A DNA stretch of 35,851 nucleotides from a virus, in the UHGV virus genome UHGV-0135983; one strand, given 5' to 3'. The notes beneath the pieces are model-generated. The model made no database searches. It was given only the letters and a program-made list of their open reading frames with translations, and had not been told where the DNA came from. The translations under genes were made by a program, and so were the position numbers. Positions 5,271 through 20,491 of the stretch are shown piece by piece; positions within the stretch are counted from its first letter, which is position 1, and the number at the start of each line of letters is the position of its first letter.

Positions 5271-5317
5271 AAAAAAGCCCCGTGGTTATCCATAGGGCTA
5301 TAATGTGCCGGGCTAGA

Positions 5318-5333
5318 GGTCGGAATCCTGACT
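5318..5333 (-). promoter_or_regulatory. conserved late-junction element copy 3 (GGTCGGAATCCTGACT), upstream of putative TerS
   Basis: Same invariant 11-mer, 45 nt upstream of the ATG at 5270. Confidence 0.5.
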
Positions 5334-5404
5334 ATTGCATATGCAGCGATGTACGTATAAAACTAGCCGACATTAATATAATCATTTTCATTCAGAGGCT
5401 CCCT

Positions 5405-5842
5405 GTGAAAACTTTATTCCCCTTAATACTGTTTATCGTAACTTCTACCGTTTGCGCCAAAGAAGTTAAATATGACTTTCCTCCAGATGGGGAAATGGCA
5501 AAATCACTCAAACCAGAAATTGTTGGCGTGGCTAATTATGAAATGGTCAATAGAAGCGTGCGCTTAAAAGCTTTAGATGTTGGTGAAAAAAATGTTTCTC
5601 TCCTGGTAGTCATAGGTGCTACCGACACCAGAAAACCCGTTACTCAAGCTAACATCCCTGACAAACAATCAATCTCATTAACTAAACAGCAAATTGTGAA
5701 CAAATATTGTGCACCATTCGGGTATGGCAATTGGTACTTTGATGCCTTCAAACAGCGGGGTGTAAAACTGCACTATTACTTTTACTCGGCAGTAGACACC
5801 CCGTTATTTACATTCACGGTAAATAAATCTGATTGCGATTAA
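5405..5842 (+). CDS. secreted hypothetical protein (moron, opposite strand to virion genes)
   Basis: GTG start with AGAGG RBS 7 nt upstream; N-terminal signal peptide VKTLFPLILFIVTSTVCA; AT-rich relative to flanks; TATAAT-like boxes at 5299..5304 and 5377..5382; stop overlaps the convergent internal virion gene stop. Confidence 0.5.
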   Translation: MKTLFPLILFIVTSTVCAKEVKYDFPPDGEMAKSLKPEIVGVANYEMVNRSVRLKALDVGEKNVSLLVVIGATDTRKPVTQANIPDKQSISLTKQQIVNKYCAPFGYGNWYFDAFKQRGVKLHYYFYSAVDTPLFTFTVNKSDCD

Positions 5843-8733
5843 CGCATACCGGGATCGACCTGGTTAATCAGCGGCGCAATCCAGAACAGATTATTACCGG
5901 GTAACAGCGTACGCACGTTATGCAGCACACGGTCGCCGGCGTCGCCATTCAGCACGCCGGCGGTTACATCTGTAACGGTATCCAGCAGGCCAAAGGTTGG
6001 CCCCAGAGCAGAACCGATAAAGCCGCGGCTGGCGTAACGGGACTGCGTACCGGTGCCGAGCAATGGCCCTAGCCCTACCATCCCGCCGGATGCCTTTTCA
6101 GCCATGTTGTTATATTCCATCAGTGGACCGAGGATACCAGAACGGTCGATGCCCTCGAGAACCATCTTCTGCGGGGTCAAATCAACTTCCCGGCCATTAG
6201 CCGCCTGCTTAAGCGCATAGGTCAAAGAGCCCAGGCCAATCTGGAAGGCGGTGCCGTAATAGAACTGCGCGGTACCTTCCTGCAGGCCGCCGAGCGTTGC
6301 GCGATTATAGGATGCCGTAGCAAAAGACTTAAACTGGAATACGGTTTTCCCCAGCGGGGTACTAGCCCACAGCGGCGTATCACCGATCCCCGGCGTGATA
6401 ACTGTATTGTTTACGTCTTTCAGTACCGCGGATTGCAGCAAACCGGCGGCGTACTGGTCATCCCATTTTTCGAAATTGCCGATATGCCAACCCTGAATAA
6501 CTTCGCCGTGCTTCTGAAATTCTCGCTGGATGCGTTCGGCCATCTTCTCATTGATGCCGAGTTTTGCCAGGCGCTTCGCAGGGAACGCGCCGGACAGAAT
6601 ACCGTCGGACGTGATCATGCCATTCACCGATTTGTTCATATCGTCAAAGTGGCCCATCATGGTCAACTTGCCGAACACATCGGTAATACGTTCCATGCCA
6701 GCTTCTGCAGCTGTCGTACGTGAAGAGCTATCGACCAGATCCCCCATCGTACGCGCGCGGGTATGCAGTATGGTTTCAAGTCCAACGGCCATTTTCTTCT
6801 GATCCGCCCGGCTGGCGAGGTAAGCCGGCGAGCGGGTAATCAGTGCGCCATATCCACGCATGGTATTGCTGAAGCCGTTAACCATCATGCCGCGCGCCAG
6901 ATCCGGGATAGCGGATACCGTCATGCCACCGAGTTTTGTTACAAAGTTGGCGCTACGCAGGAAAGCACCGGCGCGGACGAAAAATGATGATGGGTCATCC
7001 GGCATACCGTAGGTACCAACGAGGCGATCGCGGAGCGCCAGAATATCGCGCAGGTCGGCTTCGCGCGCCTTCGCCAGCTTTTCCTGTTCTGCCGGGCGTA
7101 AACGCATCAGCGCGTCGTATTCGTCCTGGATGGCGGCGAGCTGCGAATCCAGCGACTTATTGCCAAAGGTGCGGGTTAATTCGATTTCTGCTGAGGCTTC
7201 ACGAATATGACGCTGCAGGACGTAGTTAGCATCGCTCTCCAGATAATCTTTCATCAGGCGATCGGGAACGCTCAACGTACGCGATTTTGTGCTACCCGGC
7301 GCTTTCACCATAAAGACGTTGGCGAACTCCTGCGGAATTTTGGCCCCGACAATACGGTTGATAGTGGTATCTGCGGCAATTTCGGCATCTTCGCGGGACA
7401 TGGTTTTTTCACCGCGTGACCACCAGTCAACCAGCATGTTGCGGAATTTATCGCGCTCGCTAACGATTTTCCCTACCTTGTACACGCGTGGGAAATAGCT
7501 GGTCTGTCCCATCGCTTTCAGTTCGGCATCCGGCGGAAGTAAACCCAGTTCCTGCTGTGCCGTCTTCACACGATTGATGACCGTACGCATTGCCTGTGCC
7601 GCTTCCTGCACTTTCGCATTAACGTGCACGTCACCGTTGCGCAGCGCCTCGCCAACCTGTTCACGGAAGGCCGTATAACCCAGATCGCCGCCTTCGGCTT
7701 TGTACTGGGTGTATGCCTGCTTATTCGCAGTAACGACGGCCGCCTCTTCACGGCGCCAGCCACGTACGCGCGTCTCAGCTGCAACCGGCGTTTCAATACC
7801 GCGCAGGTTGCCTTCCAGCGTGAAGTTATTCTCTGCAAGTTCCAGCGCTGTCCGGCGCGCTTCTTTTGATGGGGATTCCATCAGGCGGGTGATCGGCGTC
7901 AGATAGCTACCGGCTTTTTTAGCCAGCTTGCCTAGTGGGCCGCCAGACACCGGTGTGAGATCATCCAGCGTAGCTTCGCGGATACGCATGGCGCCGACGC
8001 TGCCACCATTCGGTAAAGTATCCGCCAGGGCATCAGCTGCGTTGTTAATCGTTGGCGAGGCGTTCATATTATCGAGCGCCTCCGCCACTTCACGGGTGGC
8101 CGCATTTCTTACCGACGGGGTGATCATCGCGCCAGCAGTGGCAAATACACCGCTGAGAAGTGCGCCGGCAGTAATGTGTGCGGCGCTCTCCCTGGCTGTT
8201 CTGGTGTACTGCTCGTTATTGAGCGCAACCTCGCTAAGTGCGGTACCGGCAGCGCCAATAGCAACCTGAGAACCAATACGCGCAGCCAAGCTTCCCTGCG
8301 CACCAGGAATAAACATCGATGCGACCGTGACAGGGTCGATAATTCCGGCGGCGATACTAGCCAAAGTTCCTTCAGCGCCTGTTTCAGACAGCACCCGGCG
8401 GTCTTCGTTTTCATCGTCTATCTGGTTTTTAATCCAGGCGGTTTCCTCTGGGGATTTTGAATCCGCAAAGGCGGATCCCCATTGTTCGTACCCCTTTAGT
8501 TCGTTTTTATCAGAATAAGGGTTATAACCGTCCGCCGGTTCGAATTGTTTAGCCGGGCGGAACATTCCGGCCAGCAGGTTATTCTGACGAAAAGCGGCAT
8601 CCCATACAGACGGTTGCTGTTGCAGCGGTTCCGGGTTAGTTCCTTTAGGCAGAGATACATCAAAACCAGTTGGCTCCTGAAGAGCATTATCCATTACGCT
8701 TAGCGGTTCGTCAGATTGTGGGTAGAAAGGCAT
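5839..8733 (-). CDS. internal virion / ejection protein (T7 gp15/gp16-like, large)
   Basis: 964 aa, directly follows the SLT-domain protein with overlapping stop/start; position and size as in T7-type core proteins. Confidence 0.55.
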   Translation of the reverse strand: MPFYPQSDEPLSVMDNALQEPTGFDVSLPKGTNPEPLQQQPSVWDAAFRQNNLLAGMFRPAKQFEPADGYNPYSDKNELKGYEQWGSAFADSKSPEETAWIKNQIDDENEDRRVLSETGAEGTLASIAAGIIDPVTVASMFIPGAQGSLAARIGSQVAIGAAGTALSEVALNNEQYTRTARESAAHITAGALLSGVFATAGAMITPSVRNAATREVAEALDNMNASPTINNAADALADTLPNGGSVGAMRIREATLDDLTPVSGGPLGKLAKKAGSYLTPITRLMESPSKEARRTALELAENNFTLEGNLRGIETPVAAETRVRGWRREEAAVVTANKQAYTQYKAEGGDLGYTAFREQVGEALRNGDVHVNAKVQEAAQAMRTVINRVKTAQQELGLLPPDAELKAMGQTSYFPRVYKVGKIVSERDKFRNMLVDWWSRGEKTMSREDAEIAADTTINRIVGAKIPQEFANVFMVKAPGSTKSRTLSVPDRLMKDYLESDANYVLQRHIREASAEIELTRTFGNKSLDSQLAAIQDEYDALMRLRPAEQEKLAKAREADLRDILALRDRLVGTYGMPDDPSSFFVRAGAFLRSANFVTKLGGMTVSAIPDLARGMMVNGFSNTMRGYGALITRSPAYLASRADQKKMAVGLETILHTRARTMGDLVDSSSRTTAAEAGMERITDVFGKLTMMGHFDDMNKSVNGMITSDGILSGAFPAKRLAKLGINEKMAERIQREFQKHGEVIQGWHIGNFEKWDDQYAAGLLQSAVLKDVNNTVITPGIGDTPLWASTPLGKTVFQFKSFATASYNRATLGGLQEGTAQFYYGTAFQIGLGSLTYALKQAANGREVDLTPQKMVLEGIDRSGILGPLMEYNNMAEKASGGMVGLGPLLGTGTQSRYASRGFIGSALGPTFGLLDTVTDVTAGVLNGDAGDRVLHNVRTLLPGNNLFWIAPLINQVDPGMR

Positions 8734-11447
8734 TATTCATTACTCCATGAAAAGTAGTTTTTGACCCTGTTCATACGCTCATCATGTAAGCGCTGATACT
8801 GTTCATCGAGAGCACGATGTTTTTCCTTAAAGCCCCGAATATCTTTACCACGTAATATTTCCTCTTCGCCTTGTTTCTCCCTCTCCTGCTGCATTTTTTG
8901 ATATGGCCCCCATTTTTCAATGTCAGGTTTCCAGCGCATGGGACGACCAAATTTATCGTAATAAGGCTGTACGCTCTCGATTCCATCTTTATCTTTCATG
9001 CGAACAACAACTGAATATTTGCGGTCGCGAGGGGTATCCAAATCAGGCGTAATCTCTAACTCTCCACCAATACGAGATTCAGGTGTATTGGTGGTTATTA
9101 CGGGCGCAGCCCCGGAAGTTATTCCAAGCTCTGTTGGGCTCGTTAATATTTCTTTACTGCGTTCCCCATACATTAGTTCTTCTTTTTCTTCTTTCCACTG
9201 TGCAGCCTGCCACCCTGCCGGGCCATAATTATAAAGTGCTTCAGGTGCATATTTCATAAACTGGGCGCTGCCATTTACATCGCTAATACTCCATGTTCGG
9301 GATATCTGTACGTTGGTCATTTTTTTAGCTAATTCGGCGTTACCACCCGAATTGCGATAATTGATGTCATACAATGACTGGTAGTCATTACGGAATTTTA
9401 CAGCATTAGGATTCTGGTCATCCGCAGCGGGACCGCCAAAGCTGTACCATGGTTTCATGCTGCTGACTGCAGAATCCATCGCGCTGGCACGCTCTTTTTT
9501 GTACTCCTTCGTGCTCTGTGTAGAAGACAATTGAGATTTCAGTGCGTCGGTCTGGTTGTAGGTCACGTTCTGTGCTTGTTTTACAGCCGCATCGGGTGCC
9601 ATTCCAGCATCGGATAACTGTTTAACTGTCAGGTAAAAACTTTGCATATCCTTTGGCATGTCGCTAATAGATGCAGGATCCGCCCTGTACAGGGAATCGA
9701 ACAAATTAGCCCCCTGCTTCACCACGTCTGGGCTATCAGAGCGAGAAATAGCATTCAGCTGCGATGTAACTTGTGATGGGATAATGCCCGTCTGGTTAAC
9801 CTGCTGCACGATGGCGTCGTGAGTGGTGGCGTCGTTAATGCGGAAGTTAAGCGCCGATGGCGTATTGTCCGCCGCCTTCTGCATGGATTTGTTGCTCGGG
9901 TCGAGTTTCTCGCCGGAGATCAGCGCGTCGTTAAAGCGGGTAGCATCACGCTGCGCCTGAATATTGGCGTTGCTCTTCTGAACCAGCGCACTAAGTTTGC
10001 CGTACGCATCGAGTTTCAATGCGTAATCCGGGTCGTTTGCCTGCGGCTTCACTTTCGCCAGTTCGGCCTGCTGCTCTGCCGGGGTGACGTACTGGATAGC
10101 CTGGAAGGTTCTGGCGGTATCGATCGCGATATCCAGTTGCTTTACTACCTGCTGCCCTTTCTCGCCGTACATGAACATGATGGTTTCGGCATTAGGCATC
10201 GCTTCGGGAACATCACCATTGTACAGCTGAGAAAATGTATTATTAACGATGGGCTCCATCTGCTGGCGCAGCGCCGCTCGCTGTTCTCGGATCTGCGATT
10301 CGGCGATATTGTCGATTTTGTTTACCGCTACCGGGTCGAGGCCAGTTTTATTTTTGTTGTAACGGGAAAGCCAACCACGCGTTTCGGCTGGCAGCTGCTT
10401 AACGAAATCCGCCATTGAGATTTCGCCTTTGCGCGGATCGCCAACTTTAGCGATCAGCTTATCGACGTTACCCATACCCCAGTTATATGCAGCACCGGCC
10501 AGCGTTTCAGACTGATATTTTTTACTGAGCTGCCCGGCATAATCGCGCGCCAGCTGCGCATGCTGCACAGAGTCGTCCGGGTTGTACTCTACTCCACGTT
10601 TAGCCGCCAGTTCTTTCCCGGTGTCCGGCATCAACTGAAATTCACCCTGCGCGCCCGCGGGGGATGTAACAAGGCTACCATCTGCATTGCGGTGCTTGCC
10701 GCCAGATTCCACCAGGCCAACGGCGCGCATATCAAGTTCGCCGGTGCTGCTGTTGACCAGCGTAAAATCGCCATTAAGCCAGCCGGTGGGATTGGTTACT
10801 GCGTAGTTCTGCGCGCGCTGCTCCAGCGCTTTTTGATTCGCTTCGGAGACCGCACCGTCGATGCGTTCCTGCGACCAGCCGCGAGCCTGGCCATACATCT
10901 CGATCGAGTGTTTACGGGCGCTGCGTATCAGCCCCGCCTGCATCGGGTTATCGTAGGCGCTGGCCTCCTGTTCAACTGAAGAGGTCACCGTCGCGTTAAG
11001 CTGCTGGCGCTGGGCTTCCTCAGTCTGCGCCCGTTCGAAACCGCTATAGGTGCTTGTCCGGCGTACCTGCCCCGCTTTCCACTGCGCATCAAAATAGTTT
11101 AACTGGCTGGGCGGCACGCGCTTGCGCGCTTCCTCGTAATCGCCAGCGTCGGCCTTATCCATATCGATGACCACACCTGACGATTTAAAGCCCTGACGCG
11201 TAACCGTGGCGCCCGTCTCCGGGTTTTCCCAGCGGTCATTAGATTTAGCTTCCAGATCGGTCAGAATAGCCTGCGTGGCCGCGACGTCGGCTTTATCCTG
11301 ATCACGCTGCACCTGCTCTGCTACCTGCCCAGCAGCAGCGCCAAAACCAGATACTGCGTTACCCACAGCGCCCACATTGCTGACTGCGACGCGCGTAGGT
11401 TGTACCTGCGGCGTTACATTGCCAAAATTACCCGTTGGAATTCTCAC
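8733..11447 (-). CDS. internal virion protein with soluble lytic transglycosylase (SLT) domain
   Basis: 904 aa; SLT signature GLVESGG...GAQGEFQLMPDTG...AYNWGMGNV (catalytic E-S, Q-L-M-P, AYN-G blocks). Confidence 0.75.
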   Translation of the reverse strand: MRIPTGNFGNVTPQVQPTRVAVSNVGAVGNAVSGFGAAAGQVAEQVQRDQDKADVAATQAILTDLEAKSNDRWENPETGATVTRQGFKSSGVVIDMDKADAGDYEEARKRVPPSQLNYFDAQWKAGQVRRTSTYSGFERAQTEEAQRQQLNATVTSSVEQEASAYDNPMQAGLIRSARKHSIEMYGQARGWSQERIDGAVSEANQKALEQRAQNYAVTNPTGWLNGDFTLVNSSTGELDMRAVGLVESGGKHRNADGSLVTSPAGAQGEFQLMPDTGKELAAKRGVEYNPDDSVQHAQLARDYAGQLSKKYQSETLAGAAYNWGMGNVDKLIAKVGDPRKGEISMADFVKQLPAETRGWLSRYNKNKTGLDPVAVNKIDNIAESQIREQRAALRQQMEPIVNNTFSQLYNGDVPEAMPNAETIMFMYGEKGQQVVKQLDIAIDTARTFQAIQYVTPAEQQAELAKVKPQANDPDYALKLDAYGKLSALVQKSNANIQAQRDATRFNDALISGEKLDPSNKSMQKAADNTPSALNFRINDATTHDAIVQQVNQTGIIPSQVTSQLNAISRSDSPDVVKQGANLFDSLYRADPASISDMPKDMQSFYLTVKQLSDAGMAPDAAVKQAQNVTYNQTDALKSQLSSTQSTKEYKKERASAMDSAVSSMKPWYSFGGPAADDQNPNAVKFRNDYQSLYDINYRNSGGNAELAKKMTNVQISRTWSISDVNGSAQFMKYAPEALYNYGPAGWQAAQWKEEKEELMYGERSKEILTSPTELGITSGAAPVITTNTPESRIGGELEITPDLDTPRDRKYSVVVRMKDKDGIESVQPYYDKFGRPMRWKPDIEKWGPYQKMQQEREKQGEEEILRGKDIRGFKEKHRALDEQYQRLHDERMNRVKNYFSWSNE

Positions 11448-11452
11448 GTTTA

Positions 11453-11941
11453 TTACTCCGCATATAATCCGTATTTGCCAGTTTTAGCCTTTTGCCAGCC
11501 GCTGTACGCCGTCCCGCCGGCGCTTAATAGCGAACTGCCGGCGCTGATATTTCCAGCCGTCGCCGCATTCCTGCCACTGATACGATCGGCCTGTGCCTGC
11601 GCCTGCAGACGGTTAGACGAATTCACGCCATTAAGGATCGTCTGGTAAGCGTCCTGCTCTGCGTCTTCGGTAATGCCAGAAGTAATGCGCAGTGCAGTGC
11701 CTTCGCCGGTTTCCACACCTGACGCCGCCAGCGAAGCGTTAGCCGCTGCAGCCTGTTTACGCCCTGCTTTACGGATGCGGTCGGCTTCCACCCGTGCGGC
11801 TTTCTGACTCGCCTCGGCGTCAGCTTCCGCCTGTGCAGCCTGATAGTTCGCCATTTTTTTCTGCTGCTGCCCGCTATACGCTGCGCCGCCAGCGGCCAGC
11901 ACTGAGGACGCTATTACAGCGATTTCTACGCCAGTGCACAT
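11453..11941 (-). CDS. internal virion protein A (T7 gp14-like)
   Basis: 162 aa, starts MC, Ala/Gln-rich, immediately upstream of the large internal virion proteins. Confidence 0.5.
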   Translation of the reverse strand: MCTGVEIAVIASSVLAAGGAAYSGQQQKKMANYQAAQAEADAEASQKAARVEADRIRKAGRKQAAAANASLAASGVETGEGTALRITSGITEDAEQDAYQTILNGVNSSNRLQAQAQADRISGRNAATAGNISAGSSLLSAGGTAYSGWQKAKTGKYGLYAE

Positions 11942-11943
11942 CG

Positions 11944-12396
11944 TTAAACCTCCATCGAATAAAGCAGGCCTGTTTGCTGCAGGCCGAGACGCGAATACAA
12001 CTGGCCGGTGCGTTCTGCGTGCACCCCAGTGGTGATCCCCATGTTGATAACGGCGGCGCCGTGCTCTTTTGACCAGTCGATAAAGGCGCGTGCCAGTCGC
12101 GGCCCGGCGCTGCCGCCTCGATGTTCTGGCGCGACAAATAAGCCGTATTCAAAAGCCATCAACTGGCGGGAGAAAAATTGCTCTGCGATACCGCCGCCAA
12201 GCCAGCCGATCACATGCCCGTCTTTTTCAGCGACCAGCACACAACCAGACGGCGAATAAATCAGGCTCTGCGCCAGTTCTGCACATTTATCCGCGTCAAA
12301 CGGCGAATTTAGCGAGTAACGGGACTCGAGATACATCCGGGTCCCCAACTCGATAAGCGCCGGGATATCCCCGGCTGTGGCGTTACGAATCATCAT
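11944..12396 (-). CDS. GNAT-family N-acetyltransferase
   Basis: Start taken at MMIRNATAGDIPALIELG, overlapping the tail tubular B stop as TAATG; acetyl-CoA motif A-like VAPEHRGGSAGPRLARAF; longer 216-aa ORF would overlap the upstream gene by ~200 nt. Confidence 0.7.
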   Translation of the reverse strand: MMIRNATAGDIPALIELGTRMYLESRYSLNSPFDADKCAELAQSLIYSPSGCVLVAEKDGHVIGWLGGGIAEQFFSRQLMAFEYGLFVAPEHRGGSAGPRLARAFIDWSKEHGAAVINMGITTGVHAERTGQLYSRLGLQQTGLLYSMEV

Positions 12397-14384
12397 TAGC
12401 CCCCGTTGCTGGTAAATACGATGACAATGGCGAGAAGATGAAATGGCAGCGGCTGGCGCTGCTGAATAGTCAGCGTGTCTTCTCCGCGCTCCCAGCCAAG
12501 TTTTCCCCAGTAGTGATCGCCGGTGAACAACGGCGCCGGCTGGTTGAGGATTTTTGGCCCGAACGTGCGGAACGGGATCACCTGGCCGTTGCACTCTGCG
12601 CCAGTGGTTTCGAGGAAACGCATAGTGACTTCACTTGTGCGCTTACGGGTGTTCTGCGTGGTGCCTTCAGACGTGGCGACTTCAGGTGTCAGCGTGGTAA
12701 TGGTTGTTTCAAAGTGCAGGCCGATTTCGACTTTGTAGGCTTTGCGCGATAGCGTGATTTGGCCGGATGAAACGACCGCCTGCGGCATCACTGAGCCATC
12801 AGCGACAATATCGACGGTCTCGCCTTCGAGGTGCGACAGTCCGCCCCATGTCGTTGCGCCAGTATCACTGGAGCCCGTCACGGCTGCATCGGTGTACAGG
12901 GCGTTACTGAACATTTCGACATAGCGAACGGTCTGGCCGTTGACCGTACGGCGCACAATGGCGTACACCACATCGTCAGTCGCTGAGGGAATAGTCGCTA
13001 CGGACTCAAACGCACCACTGGTGATCTGTCGTGACCACGCGACAACGTTCTGCACCCGGTCGATAGCCATTGTCACCATTACGCCATCATTGCGAACCAG
13101 CCAGGTAAACGCATCAGGTTGCTGCTGATACGCCATATCGATCACACCGCCTTCTGTGATGTGTTCCGCCAGTACAGTCATATCGTTGGCCGAGTAAGCT
13201 ACATAGCTGTCGGGGTCATAGGCGACAGCGTAGAGCTTACGGCCAGAACGCTGGACGAACATAATTTCGGTACCGACGCGCACCGGCCGGATCCCGTTGC
13301 ATCCGTACGGGCTGGGATTTTTTACCGAAATATTGGTAGGCGTAATCGCCGCATCATTGCCGGCGGTGATGGTGAACTCGCCGCCGTACGTCAGCGCAAT
13401 TAGCGTATTCATCTGCGCGAGGTGAACAATCGGGTTAAGCTGGTCAGAAGAGAGCGTAAAGCTGATCGCGTCGTCGTCATCGGTTCCCAGCTCGAAAGAG
13501 AGGTATACGCCCGATTCGCTCCACCAGATAGTTTGCGGATACTGCGGCGAACCAGCCAGAACCAACCGCTGCTGGTAAAGCGTTACCGCACCCGGGTATC
13601 CAAATTCATCCGTCCAGACAGAATCCTCGCGAGTCCAGGCGCCCGGCGATGCTGCCTGCGTTGCGCTTAAATCGGTGCGAATGGTACCGACAGCAACCTG
13701 TGCACTGGTTACGCTCTTGATCAGCACCAGACCGCTGTTAATCCTTACGTACGAGCCCACATCTTCAGGCACCCAGCCATCACCGGTGAGCGTTCCGTCT
13801 CCGCTTTCTGGCGGTTCATCATCGCTCAGTGTCAGCGTGATTTCCGAGCCGACGAATTCTTTCACTGATGGCTTGCACCACTTTTGCGGTGTGTCGCGTA
13901 CTTCGTCGAAGGGTTCAACGATAAACGGCGCCGGTTCCAGAACCCAATCGGTTTGCCCGCGTCGCTGCAGGCGATACGGTTTAACGGCCTGATGCACCAG
14001 AAACATGGTATCGGCGCCCTGAACGTAATTTACCGATGGCAGCATGTCAGAGGTGTACGGGCTGGCGATTTCATACGGCGTGTTATCGTCGTTCACCAGC
14101 TGCTTACCGTCCTGGTAAATTCGCAGATAGCCGTCGCCAAATTCCAGAATGTACGCCTGCGTGCGGTTAAAAACGTACGGAATGAGGCGGGATTTTTTAT
14201 CACCGTACTTTGTGGCCGCTACATACTGCGAACCGGGACGACGCATTACCCCGCCCTGTACCACGACCACGCTATTTTCCAGCGTCTTCGCGCCGTTCGC
14301 ATAGCGATCGATATCCACGCGCCCCATAAGACGTGGGGAAATTTCGCCGGCGGTGAAGTTGGTTTTAATCAGACTGGCGCGCAT
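12396..14384 (-). CDS. tail tubular protein B (T7 gp12-like)
   Basis: Start at MRASLIKTNFTAGEISPRL (GAGG RBS), similar in pattern to the gp12 N-terminus; follows tail tubular A. Confidence 0.7.
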   Translation of the reverse strand: MRASLIKTNFTAGEISPRLMGRVDIDRYANGAKTLENSVVVVQGGVMRRPGSQYVAATKYGDKKSRLIPYVFNRTQAYILEFGDGYLRIYQDGKQLVNDDNTPYEIASPYTSDMLPSVNYVQGADTMFLVHQAVKPYRLQRRGQTDWVLEPAPFIVEPFDEVRDTPQKWCKPSVKEFVGSEITLTLSDDEPPESGDGTLTGDGWVPEDVGSYVRINSGLVLIKSVTSAQVAVGTIRTDLSATQAASPGAWTREDSVWTDEFGYPGAVTLYQQRLVLAGSPQYPQTIWWSESGVYLSFELGTDDDDAISFTLSSDQLNPIVHLAQMNTLIALTYGGEFTITAGNDAAITPTNISVKNPSPYGCNGIRPVRVGTEIMFVQRSGRKLYAVAYDPDSYVAYSANDMTVLAEHITEGGVIDMAYQQQPDAFTWLVRNDGVMVTMAIDRVQNVVAWSRQITSGAFESVATIPSATDDVVYAIVRRTVNGQTVRYVEMFSNALYTDAAVTGSSDTGATTWGGLSHLEGETVDIVADGSVMPQAVVSSGQITLSRKAYKVEIGLHFETTITTLTPEVATSEGTTQNTRKRTSEVTMRFLETTGAECNGQVIPFRTFGPKILNQPAPLFTGDHYWGKLGWERGEDTLTIQQRQPLPFHLLAIVIVFTSNGG

Positions 14385-14385
14385 G

Positions 14386-14949
14386 TCAGAACCTCGATTC
14401 GTACGTTGGATAGCCGCCAAGCTCTTCCGGCGGGTCTTCCTGACCATCTACCGCTTTCGCCTGCTTCAGCAGTACCAGCGATTCCTGGGCGATACTGTCG
14501 CGCAGACTGGTAGAGCCGGTGACGGCATAGGCCAGCTTTGCCTGCATCATCATTTCTGCCACATCAACGAGCGCGGCATCCCAGGTGGATTCGTCTTCGT
14601 TGCGGAACACATAACGCAGCTTCAGTACCTGCACGTTCGCCAGCAGCCGGTTTCCTTCGACGCGGTACGGGATATCGTCGTAAGGTTCCCCAACGGACAG
14701 AACGCGAAGAAGATCACCGGGTAGTGCGAACTGAAAGCGGAAACCGAATACCGGTGCCGTACTGACAGGAGAGAGAACCACACGTTTTACAACGCAGTTC
14801 CACGGATGCACGCGCAGTAGCTTATTGCGTACGGTGGGATAAAGGTTTGAGCACAGGCGGGCGTGATCGGTGTTTTCGTCGAAACTGTTAATCGGGTGAG
14901 CACCGAGCGCCAGCAGTGCGTTAGAGCAGATAGAAATACTGTCAGCCAT
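14386..14949 (-). CDS. tail tubular protein A (T7 gp11-like)
   Basis: 187 aa, directly downstream of capsid gene and terminator. Confidence 0.6.
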   Translation of the reverse strand: MADSISICSNALLALGAHPINSFDENTDHARLCSNLYPTVRNKLLRVHPWNCVVKRVVLSPVSTAPVFGFRFQFALPGDLLRVLSVGEPYDDIPYRVEGNRLLANVQVLKLRYVFRNEDESTWDAALVDVAEMMMQAKLAYAVTGSTSLRDSIAQESLVLLKQAKAVDGQEDPPEELGGYPTYESRF

Positions 14950-14963
14950 AGCCTTACCTCAGA

Positions 14964-14992
14964 TGAAAAAAGGCCGGGAGATATCCCCCGGC
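14964..14992 (-). terminator. intrinsic terminator after the capsid gene (T-phi-like position)
   Basis: On - strand: GCCGGGGGATATCTCCCGGC hairpin followed by CTTTTTTC. Confidence 0.7.
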
Positions 14993-16109: not shown

Positions 16110-16994
16110 TTACCCTCTGGGTTCTTTTATCCTATAACCTGTGCCAGGCATGAATTCATCAATAACTCTTGCCGCGTGACCTATAACTCGAAACGCTGAG
16201 CGTGCTTCTTCATCGGTAATTTTAGTCGCTTTAGTCGGGTCATAATCAGGAGTTTGGTCATCGTCAAAATGTACTCGATAGCCAAATTTTGATATTTCTC
16301 TGAAAATGGAACTAACTGACCTATCAATAGTTGCCATAGTGTCCATTAATCTATTTTTATCCTCCTCAATTTTATTTTTTATTTTCTCATAAGGGCCTAG
16401 CTCATCTACTAAATCTTTAAGAGCATCCGACTTAGAATTTATTTCACCTTCAATTTCATTAAGTTTCCCTTCCGCCAACTCAAGCTTCGAACTTAAAATA
16501 TTAAATTGTTCTTCAGCTTCTTCATATGACTTCTTAATGCTCTCGATATCATGTGTAACTTTAGTAACCTTGAGTTCTTCTTCTGCATTCCTTTTTGCAA
16601 ACAGAGATGTTTGATAAGCTAGTGCGCTATCTGCTTTAGCTGTGTATTCAGCAATGATTTCACGAGCCTCACTCTCAGATTTTGCCCTTTTGATATCGTT
16701 ACCATCAGCGATTTTTTGCGCGCATCTTTGAAAAAAACTCACAGCATGACTAGCATAAGGAAAAAGAACGGCAATAATAAAACCCAAAAGGATAGGAGCA
16801 ACTACAGAATACCAAAAAATACATGGTTCACTTTTCACTTTAATGATTCTATCTTGTAGTTCTCCACTACCCATTAAAACTATCAATAAACTATCCCAGT
16901 TAAACCCCAGCCATGAGAGGACTATGAACCCGAAAAGAGGAGTGTTTATTCTTTGAATTAAAGTTTTCTTTACCGCATCAGCTAATTCGTCCAT
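16110..16994 (-). CDS. membrane-anchored coiled-coil protein (AT-rich moron between scaffold and capsid)
   Basis: 294 aa; two predicted TM helices then a long Glu/Lys-rich coiled-coil region; visibly AT-rich; AAGGG RBS; candidate promoter and an upstream terminator. Confidence 0.6.
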   Translation of the reverse strand: MDELADAVKKTLIQRINTPLFGFIVLSWLGFNWDSLLIVLMGSGELQDRIIKVKSEPCIFWYSVVAPILLGFIIAVLFPYASHAVSFFQRCAQKIADGNDIKRAKSESEAREIIAEYTAKADSALAYQTSLFAKRNAEEELKVTKVTHDIESIKKSYEEAEEQFNILSSKLELAEGKLNEIEGEINSKSDALKDLVDELGPYEKIKNKIEEDKNRLMDTMATIDRSVSSIFREISKFGYRVHFDDDQTPDYDPTKATKITDEEARSAFRVIGHAARVIDEFMPGTGYRIKEPRG

Positions 16995-20041: not shown

Positions 20042-20491
20042 TTAGCCCGGAACGTGCCAGCCGTGTTCGGTTAATACGGGTGCGCCGCGTACCGGCTGCG
20101 GCTTGCCCTCTTCGTTCGTCACCATTGCGCCCGTACCGCCGGTGGTAGCCTCAGTGGCTTTACGTACGAGGGTGAGGAATTCGAGATTGTCGGTAAGACT
20201 CTGGTCGTTCAGATCGGTAAAGCCCAGCTCTTCGAAGCGGGCAACGATGGTGGCGCCCTGCGCATTGAGTGTGCCAAGAATGGCGTTGCGCTCGGCCAGT
20301 GCGGTCGCGCCCAGCAACGTCGCAACGTTCTGCTGCACGGTCTGTTCGTCGCTACCGTTACCCTGCTGCTGCGCGCCGTTCTGTTCAGCAGTAATTAATT
20401 GCCCCTCTGTAACGAGCGTTTTTTCTTCCGGCGCCGTTTTTTCCTGCCCCGGCGTCTCAACGATTTTTTTCGGTCGAGCCATTTTTTTCAC
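20042..20491 (-). CDS. hypothetical protein at head of structural module
   Basis: 149 aa, Lys-rich N-terminus, Gln/Thr-rich; no motif recognised. Confidence 0.4.
   Translation of the reverse strand: MKKMARPKKIVETPGQEKTAPEEKTLVTEGQLITAEQNGAQQQGNGSDEQTVQQNVATLLGATALAERNAILGTLNAQGATIVARFEELGFTDLNDQSLTDNLEFLTLVRKATEATTGGTGAMVTNEEGKPQPVRGAPVLTEHGWHVPG

Follow-up and report, generated by a model that had tools for sequence, protein, structure and literature searches.

The window analyzed here is a stretch of 35,851 nt from a virus genome (UHGV-0135983), which carries on its minus strand a morphogenesis module of the T7/epsilon15 type. The module starts with a T7-type portal gene (PF12236, E=3e-120), a scaffold/protease-like gene and a low-GC insert of 294 aa; it continues with the genes for the major capsid protein (PF19821), tail tubular proteins A and B, a GNAT acetyltransferase, and gp14-like, gp15-like (with an SLT domain) and gp16-like proteins, and it ends with a 113-aa ORF (phrog_9277, no assigned function), the large terminase and a tail fibre (Table 1). 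A moron at positions 16110–16994, with a G+C content of 39%, lies in a region that is variable among relatives. Elsewhere, the predicted products are those expected of a temperate phage of the lambdoid style, with a DnaB-like helicase, an HTH replication protein, NinB, DNA methylases and a RecA-dependent nuclease; a phage RNA polymerase was not found among the ORFs annotated in the window. The closest proteins to the GNAT acetyltransferase are encoded in prophages of Klebsiella (98% identity), Citrobacter, Pluralibacter, Enterobacter, Serratia, Yersinia, Pectobacterium and others, the proteins of Klebsiella or Citrobacter strains being 87–98% identical, and a 94.7% identical locus occurs in the genome of E. 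coli 23GD11002, where the product is already labelled 'GNAT family N-acetyltransferase'. A megablast comparison of the structural module against the phage collection retrieved only a short match with 72% identity, to Escherichia phage TL-2011b, and the module has therefore no named close relative at the DNA level in that collection.

The tail and ejection-protein gene block

The gene for the GNAT protein encodes 150 aa (coding positions 12396–11947, with a TAA stop at 11946–11944). The first-pass annotation placed its start codon in a TAATG overlap with the stop codon of the tail tubular B gene, and this overlap is read directly at 12398–12394: the A of the ATG (12396–12394) is the last base of the TAA (12398–12396) that ends the preceding gene. 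From this first ATG the product starts with MMIRNATAGDIPALIELG (MMIRNATAGD), and a second ATG (12393), which follows immediately, would lead to a protein of 149 aa if used. Most homologues are 149 aa long with the N-terminus MIR, i.e., they start at the second ATG, and thus either codon could be the true start; either one leaves 0–2 nt between the GNAT gene and the tail tubular B gene. From tblastn coordinates, we infer that the start codon of the 149-aa homologues is located 1 nt past the stop of their tail tubular B gene. The tail tubular B ORF was delimited mechanically and, because its profile match begins at residue 22, its true start is likely near position 14384 (MRASLIK).

On the other side, the ATG of the gp14-like gene (11941) comes 2 nt after the stop of the GNAT gene, and a GGAGG Shine-Dalgarno sequence for it is contained within the GNAT gene 3′ end. 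The GNAT gene is thus placed, as initially noticed, directly before the gp14-like gene and in the slot of T7 gene 13, with a phrog_376 protein encoded upstream and a phrog_418 protein, with an additional weak match to PF24072, downstream. This gp14-like protein starts with Met-Cys (CTGVEIAV after the initiator Met), and a hydrophobic stretch comes next. The gp15-like and gp16-like genes likewise overlap by 1 nt at position 8733, and tight coupling is a trait of the whole block, not peculiar to the junction between the tail tubular B and GNAT genes. A sequence scan revealed no good promoter-like site and no strong terminator-like site inside the tail and internal virion protein (IVP) block, which is predicted to form a single operon; the only strong terminator-like hairpin (14992–14973) is upstream of the block, just past the capsid gene.

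Table 1. Features of the tail and ejection-protein block, with their positions in the window and the evidence for each
Feature	Coordinates	Strand	Evidence
GNAT-fold acetyltransferase gene (IVP-A/gp13-slot gene)	11944..12396	minus	ORF, PF00583, phrog_1249, AF2, Foldseek, dN/dS
Acetyl-CoA pyrophosphate-binding loop R93-G-G-S-A-G98, GNAT motif A (predicted)	12103..12120	minus	alignment to RGGGIG of PDB 4j3g
TAATG stop/start overlap, tail tubular B/GNAT	12394..12398	minus	direct sequence reading
GGAGG Shine-Dalgarno for the gp14-like gene, within the GNAT gene 3′ end	11949..11953	minus	direct sequence reading
Tail tubular protein B homologue (683-aa mechanical ORF)	12396..14447	minus	phrog_376 tail protein, E=1.3e-219, residues 22-682
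Tail tubular protein A homologue (187 aa)	14386..14949	minus	phrog_394, E=8.4e-59; phrog_9239 tail tubular protein
gp14-like internal virion (ejection) protein B (162 aa)	11453..11941	minus	phrog_418 internal virion protein, E=1.2e-40; PF24072 T7_gp14 weak, E=0.0015
gp15-like internal virion protein, lytic transglycosylase domain (904 aa)	8733..11447	minus	PF01464 SLT, E=5e-8; phrog_1044, 1056 bits
gp16-like large internal virion protein (964 aa)	5839..8733	minus	phrog_342 internal virion protein, E=9e-194
Terminator-like hairpin with T-run, between the major capsid gene and the tail/IVP operon	14973..14992	minus	8-bp stem, 7 G-C pairs, then CTTTTTT

Fold and predicted cofactor site

Profile comparisons agree with the original reading of the gene as a 150-aa GNAT with an acetyl-CoA-binding motif. 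The protein scored above the Pfam cutoffs for Acetyltransf_1 (PF00583, 46.9 bits vs. a cutoff of 20.7, E=3.8e-12) and for PF13508 (33.8 bits vs. 27), and matched over its full length (residues 1–149, E=4.3e-48) the 'acetyltransferase' family phrog_1249, which in the PHROG search also took in SP6 gp27 and the homologues from phages YeP5, Piluca, ICBM1 and TPWB-05. An AF2 model built with 27 homologues (pLDDT 95.4, pTM 0.90) has the topology beta1-alpha1-alpha2-beta2-beta3-beta4-alpha3-beta5-alpha4-beta6-beta7, which is the standard GNAT order. The top matches of this model in a Foldseek comparison against the PDB were all GNATs (TM up to 0.86, E=1.8e-10): the best by TM-score (0.83–0.86) were phosphinothricin/YncA-type N-acetyltransferases and the best by E-value were of the AAC(3)-I type, and a phmmer search against PDB sequences gave concordant GNAT matches. 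The closest solved structures are, then, small-molecule N-acetyltransferases (PAT/YncA, AAC(3)-I) and not protein acetyltransferases. Nevertheless, none of the NCBIfam equivalogs (AAC(3)-I, RimI, ArsN1, PAT) came near its curated cutoff, with AAC(3)-I as the best (19.9 bits vs. 200) and RimI at 18.7 bits vs. 86.4, so that the class of substrate is not readable from the sequence. PADLOC returned nothing for the locus.

The segment R93-G-G-S-A-G98, after beta4, conforms to the GNAT motif A signature Q/R-x-x-G-x-G/A except for a Ser, and not a Gly, in the fourth position. In the family alignments R93 is invariant and G94 nearly invariant, and most members have G or A at position 98. Likewise, beta4 begins with an acidic residue (E83, or D) in all the aligned homologues but the distant Rac protein of phage LUZ19, and Tyr134 is found in most of them, including those that are ~30% identical. 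The first-pass annotation had considered that the fold might turn out to be degenerate and inactive; both the fold and the cofactor loop are instead canonical. Together, the canonical fold, the R-G-G-x-x-G loop, the acidic residue in beta4 and the mostly conserved Tyr134 suggest that the protein is a real acyl-CoA-dependent transferase.

Conservation of the locus and distribution of the family

The order tail tubular B–GNAT–gp14-like was kept in all 162 related loci that we checked, from three deeply diverged lineages of podophages. Among IMG/VR relatives, it was found in 80/80 close relatives of the window, in the 19 of 19 loci that are cobavirus-like and in 52/52 of the Piluca/Acinetobacter-like loci, as well as in each of 11 loci from species-representative Enterobacterales genomes. 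The same order also occurs in Yersinia phage YeP5, Alcaligenes phage Piluca, Acinetobacter phage TPWB-05 and Lentibacter phage ICBM1. The GNATs encoded in this slot by these phages (including Piluca gp44 and ICBM1 gp40), and by cobaviruses (pc40), belong to phrog_1249 (E between 1e-37 and 1e-45) and are alike to the protein in the window in length, gene order and motifs, whereas their sequence identity to it is 29–34% (Piluca, TPWB-05 and ICBM1 among them), save for YeP5 with ~65%, and their hosts are spread over alpha-, beta- and gammaproteobacteria. Lifestyles also differ, because cobaviruses are virulent marine phages and the element described here is an enterobacterial prophage.

Within the window's own group, median dN/dS values were 0.063 (GNAT gene), 0.076 (tail tubular B), 0.055 (gp14-like gene) and 0.10 (capsid gene). 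The GNAT gene is, therefore, under purifying selection as strong as that acting on its structural neighbours, which indicates a core morphogenesis gene rather than a moron. These values bear on the role suggested by the nearest structures and sequence matches, of the PAT/YncA and AAC(3)-I types, namely that of an enzyme that acetylates a small molecule (an antibiotic, an amino-acid analogue or a polyamine) and is carried for lysogenic conversion. We consider such a role highly improbable: besides the NCBIfam scores, all far under the curated cutoffs (see above), the gene belongs to a late structural operon and has no separate promoter-like site, virulent phages (cobaviruses and SP6-like) also keep it, and its G+C content and level of selection match those of its neighbours, unlike the low-GC moron at 16110–16994. 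The label 'GNAT family N-acetyltransferase' in the tail and ejection operon of a podophage is better read as an IVP-A morphogenesis gene than as a moron for resistance or host takeover.

Genes for phrog_1249 GNATs were also observed two genes upstream of the portal gene, after the RNA polymerase or ligase gene, in several Autographiviridae. Examples are SP6 gp27 and the homologues from Pseudomonas phage BUCT553, Vibrio phage VEN, Stappia phage SI01 and Agrobacterium phage Atu_ph02. The layout RNA polymerase or ligase, small ORF, GNAT, small ORF and portal is shared by many Autographiviridae and corresponds to the slot of the rac gene in LUZ19; neither SP6 nor LUZ19 has a gene between tail tubular B and IVP-B. 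SP6 gp27 (phrog_1249, E=9.4e-52) is 35% identical to the protein in the window and thus as close to it as the same-slot homologues from Piluca, TPWB-05 and ICBM1, although its gene, like those from Colwellvirinae, Atuphduovirus and Stappia phage SI01, is located two genes before the portal and not after tail tubular B. The GNATs from the gp13 slot and from the pre-portal slot were not separated in a neighbour-joining tree, and this suggests, within the weak resolution of the tree at these identities, a single GNAT family that moved between slots. Since the same family sits elsewhere in SP6-like and Colwellvirinae phages, its adjacency to gp14 is not obligatory. Two other proteins were considered as candidates for pre-portal GNATs. 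T7 gp7 had no Pfam match and an E-value of 0.025 to the Rac family, and a 149-aa ORF upstream of the portal gene in the window (20042–20491) was discarded as a second GNAT, with no Pfam match and only a match to phrog_17476 (no assigned function).

Among the phage GNATs in this neighbourhood, experiments have been done only with LUZ19 Rac (gp28, phrog_3986). Like the protein in the window, Rac is a GNAT, of similar size and with its gene at the edge of a T7-like structural module, but the two are ~15% identical and occupy different slots, and the function of Rac is directed to the host: it triggers the cleavage of the alpha subunit of RNA polymerase, for which it needs the predicted acetyl-CoA-binding pocket, and this phenotype is genus-specific even within the Krylovirinae (PMC7552054). 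Rac matched its own family, phrog_3986, and then only phrog_1249, weakly (E=4.9e-4), while phrog_3986 was not matched by the GNAT protein from the window and a BLASTP comparison of this protein with Rac was not significant (E=5.2); judging from these comparisons, we take the link between both families to be real but distant. A late effector like Rac, which would acetylate host proteins and so shut down or redirect host functions or defences, would find some basis in this link, in the requirement of Rac for its predicted pocket and in the phrog_1249 members that hold the Rac slot in many Autographiviridae. We nevertheless regard it as unlikely here, given the low identity to Rac and the genus-specificity of alpha cleavage. 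Also, with no phage RNA polymerase among its annotated ORFs, the phage presumably needs that of the host, whose shut-off would be self-defeating, and the strict embedding of the gene between tail tubular B and gp14 in three lineages points to morphogenesis.

Probable kinship with T7 gp13 and a putative role in ejection-protein assembly

The position between tail tubular B and IVP-B (gp14) is that of IVP-A, which is occupied by gp13 in T7 and epsilon15 and has its counterpart in P22 gp14. These proteins are classified in separate families: T7 gp13 and epsilon15 gp13 in PF11090 (Phage_T7_Gp13) and phrog_308, P22 gp14 in PF11039 (DUF2824) and phrog_651, and the GNAT from the window in phrog_1249. 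In Pfam and PHROG searches, the latter did not match PF11090 or phrog_308, and a BLASTP comparison with T7 gp13 was not significant (E=11). Comparisons of profiles with hhalign were marginal, both with narrow profiles (Neff 2–3; a match of 13–14 columns at the N-terminus, E=0.0064) and with the broad phrog_1249 profile against that of gp13 (E=0.0014 over 97 columns, with low probability). Similarly, the GNAT protein had no Pfam or PHROG match to the P22 gp14 families, and hhalign against P22 gp14 gave E=0.13–0.16 with a probability below 1%. The proposed kinship with gp13 is hence based here on fold and synteny, and we do not claim membership at the sequence level.

An AF2 model of the T7 gp13 family (pLDDT 93.3), from a representative that is 97% identical to T7 gp13, showed the same order of secondary structures as the GNAT from the window, and its top 50 matches in the PDB were all GNATs, led by RimI, PA4794 and Ard1 (best E=1.5e-5); the model thus depicts a degenerate GNAT fold. 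Also, the GenBank record of epsilon15 itself notes an HHpred match of gp13 to a GNAT structure. The gp13 proteins from T7 and epsilon15 are therefore alike to the GNAT described here in slot, size (138–154 aa) and, in the AF2 models, GNAT topology, but they belong to other Pfam and PHROG families and lack the cofactor loop: neither T7 gp13 (…VTSDQVWRLSGKAKRKF…) nor epsilon15 gp13 contains the R-x-x-G-x-G loop, which is present in the GNAT from the window and in all its phrog_1249 relatives. P22 gp14, of 151 aa and encoded directly before the IVP-B homologue gp7, contains the intermediate-looking segment PEIRGFS, resembling PEHRGGS in the protein from the window; its likeness lies in this segment, size and position, and the hhalign comparison was not significant. 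The first-pass annotation presented the GNAT as an unusual occupant of the gp13 slot, which is valid at the level of sequence, as the families are separate, but not at the level of structure, because the model of the gp13 family is itself a GNAT fold, in agreement with Hardies et al. (2016). Independent recruitment of a GNAT into the gp13 slot is possible, since sequence homology to T7 gp13 and P22 gp14 is marginal or absent.

A gene of this kind has already been described in the literature and annotated in RefSeq, and it is not new. Hardies et al. (2016; PMC4819975) assigned the slot to an acetyltransferase family that includes T7 IVP-A, reported an acetyltransferase in most of the phiRIO-1-like phages and standard IVP-A homologues in epsilon15 and P22, and classed the acetyltransferase from this slot as non-structural. 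They considered 'internal virion protein A' a misnomer, because the T7 protein, though needed for morphogenesis, does not stay in the virion (Kemp 2005, as cited in PMC4819975). In addition, Bischoff et al. (2019; PMC6775973) equated the GNAT from cobaviruses with T7 gp13. What our analysis adds is the contrast in the cofactor site, canonical in phrog_1249 and degenerate in T7 gp13. In a search of the literature, we found nothing usable on acetylated ejection proteins of T7, on the function of P22 gene 14, or on the virion proteome for a same-slot phrog_1249 member.

The explanation that we favour, with moderate confidence, is that the gene encodes a factor for the assembly of the ejection proteins that is itself non-structural, probably transfers an acyl group and is not packaged. 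The gene would be the 'IVP-A' of a temperate podophage of the T7/epsilon15 kind and correspond to T7 gene 13, epsilon15 gene 13 and P22 gene 14, being co-transcribed and translationally coupled with the genes for the tail tube and for the three internal virion (ejection) proteins. While procapsids are assembled, its product would work in the cytoplasm of the infected cell, as a helper rendering the ejection proteins competent for the internal core, in the first place the water-insoluble gp14-like protein encoded 2 nt downstream, and would be left out of the finished virion. The role in assembly is taken from the literature on this slot. For the catalysis and its target, we propose an acyl-CoA-dependent transfer to an amino group of a phage morphogenetic protein. 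In T7, gp14 is water-insoluble by itself and is solubilised in the core by gp15, needing therefore a partner (PMC8954989). Three roles had been contemplated in the first-pass annotation, i.e., injection together with the ejection proteins, acetylation of host or phage targets, and modification of virion proteins, and the last of them appears to fit the evidence best.

Injection fared worst of the three. Packaging with the ejection proteins, followed by activity in the newly infected cell, would accord with the location of the gene within the operon for internal virion proteins and with the GenBank tag of 'internal virion protein' on T7 gp13 and epsilon15 gp13. However, in virions of phiPsa17 the gp14, gp15 and gp16 proteins were detected and the gp13 homologue was not among the detected proteins (PMC4517105), and the slot acetyltransferase was classed as non-structural by Hardies et al. 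(PMC4819975), so we deem packaging very unlikely and the label 'internal virion protein' on gp13-type genes misleading. For the protein in the window, absence from the virion is extrapolated from T7-type gp13.

A variant of the assembly-factor explanation is that of a pseudo-enzyme chaperone, whose GNAT fold would only bind, as a scaffold, another ejection protein or the hydrophobic N-terminus of the gp14-like one and transfer no acyl group, which is probably how T7 gp13 works. The function of the slot may indeed not need catalysis, because T7 gp13 and epsilon15 gp13 have the GNAT topology and lack the R-x-x-G-x-G loop, yet T7 gp13 is required for morphogenesis (PMC4819975); also, an unrelated small protein occupies the same slot in phiRIO-1, PA11 and CW02 (PMC4819975), which suggests that GNAT chemistry is dispensable for the task. 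On the other hand, the loop, the acidic residue in beta4 and Tyr134 are kept across lineages with ~30% identity, which is hard to explain without cofactor binding. We therefore give the chaperone a rather small, but appreciable, probability.

T7 gene 13 and P22 gene 14 have long been known as required for, or as helpers in, the production of infectious particles, and T7 gene 13 mutants lose core proteins. Their phrog_1249 relatives with an apparently intact acyl-CoA site, which the T7 copy has lost, offer a way to approach the mechanism through cofactor binding and the search for a modified residue in the ejection proteins.

The gp14-like proteins differ in their N-termini. They start with Met-Cys in the window, in 78 of the 79 readable loci of its group, in 34/34 readable loci of the Piluca group, and in T7 and epsilon15, and with Met-Ala or Met-Pro in cobaviruses, SP6 and LUZ19. 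According to the specificity of methionine aminopeptidase, Cys, Ala and Pro as second residues all permit the removal of the initiator Met; therefore, a small N-terminal residue would be available as an acceptor, which we take as a lead only. Together with the contrast between canonical and degenerate cofactor sites, this lead makes the gene 13-type function more directly testable. A more specific proposal, which we consider quite doubtful at present, is that the GNAT from the gp13 slot is an N-terminal acyl- or acetyl-transferase acting on the adjacent ejection protein. Once the Met is removed, N-acylation would take place on the conserved Cys thus exposed in the gp14-like protein, or on the Ala or Pro of other lineages; this modification would allow the water-insoluble protein to go into the capsid core and, afterwards, to insert in the host outer membrane. 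T7 gp13 would then be a catalytically degenerate descendant that kept the binding step alone, and the pre-portal copies from Autographiviridae would have been re-targeted to host proteins in the lineage of Rac.

A second genomic slot for the GNAT family

The phrog_1249 acetyltransferase-fold (GNAT) family, found in the window in the gp13 slot between tail tubular B and the gp14-like gene, has a second conserved slot in Autographiviridae, with the order RNAP or ligase, small ORF, GNAT, small ORF and portal; this is also the slot of Rac, the phrog_3986 GNAT of LUZ19. A neighbour-joining tree of the GNATs did not split according to slot (gp13 or pre-portal), and inspection of the interval between tail tubular B and the internal virion protein B (IVP-B) genes of SP6 and LUZ19 revealed no gene between them. 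The 'host range' protein gp7 of T7 did not produce any match in a Pfam search; its residues 48-133 match phrog_3986 weakly (E=0.025), and gp7 may be a degenerate pre-portal GNAT.

Features of the window and of loci from other phages (L-numbers, in their own coordinates)
Feature	Position	Strand	Remarks
186-aa ORF	5282-5842	+	between gp16-like gene and 113-aa ORF preceding terminase gene
gp14-like gene	start 11941	-
Tail tubular B, mechanical ORF	12396-14447	-
Tail tubular A	14386-14949	-
Strong terminator-like hairpin	14973-14992	-	8-bp stem, 7 G-C pairs, T-run
294-aa ORF	16110-16994	-	39% G+C; inserted between scaffold and capsid genes
SP6 gp27	L003:5001-5462		pre-portal GNAT
Other Autographiviridae GNATs	L087:4989-5444; L165:3498-3953; L166:3501-3941; L167:3501-3965		pre-portal
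LUZ19 Rac	L004:6535-7008
T7 gene 7	L162:631-1032		just upstream of gp7.3 and portal
Further gp14/IVP-B homologues	starts L005:3729, L090:6587, L002:7456, L086:5456

N-terminus of the gp14-like proteins

The product of the window's gp14-like gene opens with Met-Cys followed by a hydrophobic stretch, as do the IVP-B proteins from 78 of the 79 readable loci of its close IMG/VR relatives and from all 34 readable Piluca/Acinetobacter-like loci. T7 and epsilon15 share this type of start, whereas in the homologs from cobaviruses, SP6 and LUZ19 the initial Met is followed by Ala or Pro. This second position of gp14/IVP-B, where a small residue is conserved, could serve as an acceptor for the GNAT encoded upstream.

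Organization of the tail operon

The terminator-like hairpin lies directly 3' of the major capsid gene and ahead of tail tubular A, resembling both Tphi of T7 and the epsilon15 terminator located after the capsid genes of that phage; this position implies that the tail, GNAT and ejection operon would be expressed at a lower level than the capsid gene. The mechanical ORF of tail tubular B overlaps tail tubular A by around 60 nt; since its profile match begins only at residue 22 (MRASLIK), the true start is probably the ATG near 14384, just past the tail tubular A stop.

Candidate morons

The 294-aa ORF has a hydrophobic-looking N-terminal stretch followed by a coiled coil, and retrieved only weak matches of the coiled-coil type (SMC, LmuB, JetC). 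The scaffold-capsid interval containing it differs in length among relatives and, therefore, this ORF is probably a moron, possibly with a role in exclusion or defence. The 186-aa ORF, which did not match any entry in Pfam, PHROGs, NCBIfam or PADLOC, may be another moron; it is on the opposite strand to the flanking genes, in a stretch of locally lower GC (47%).
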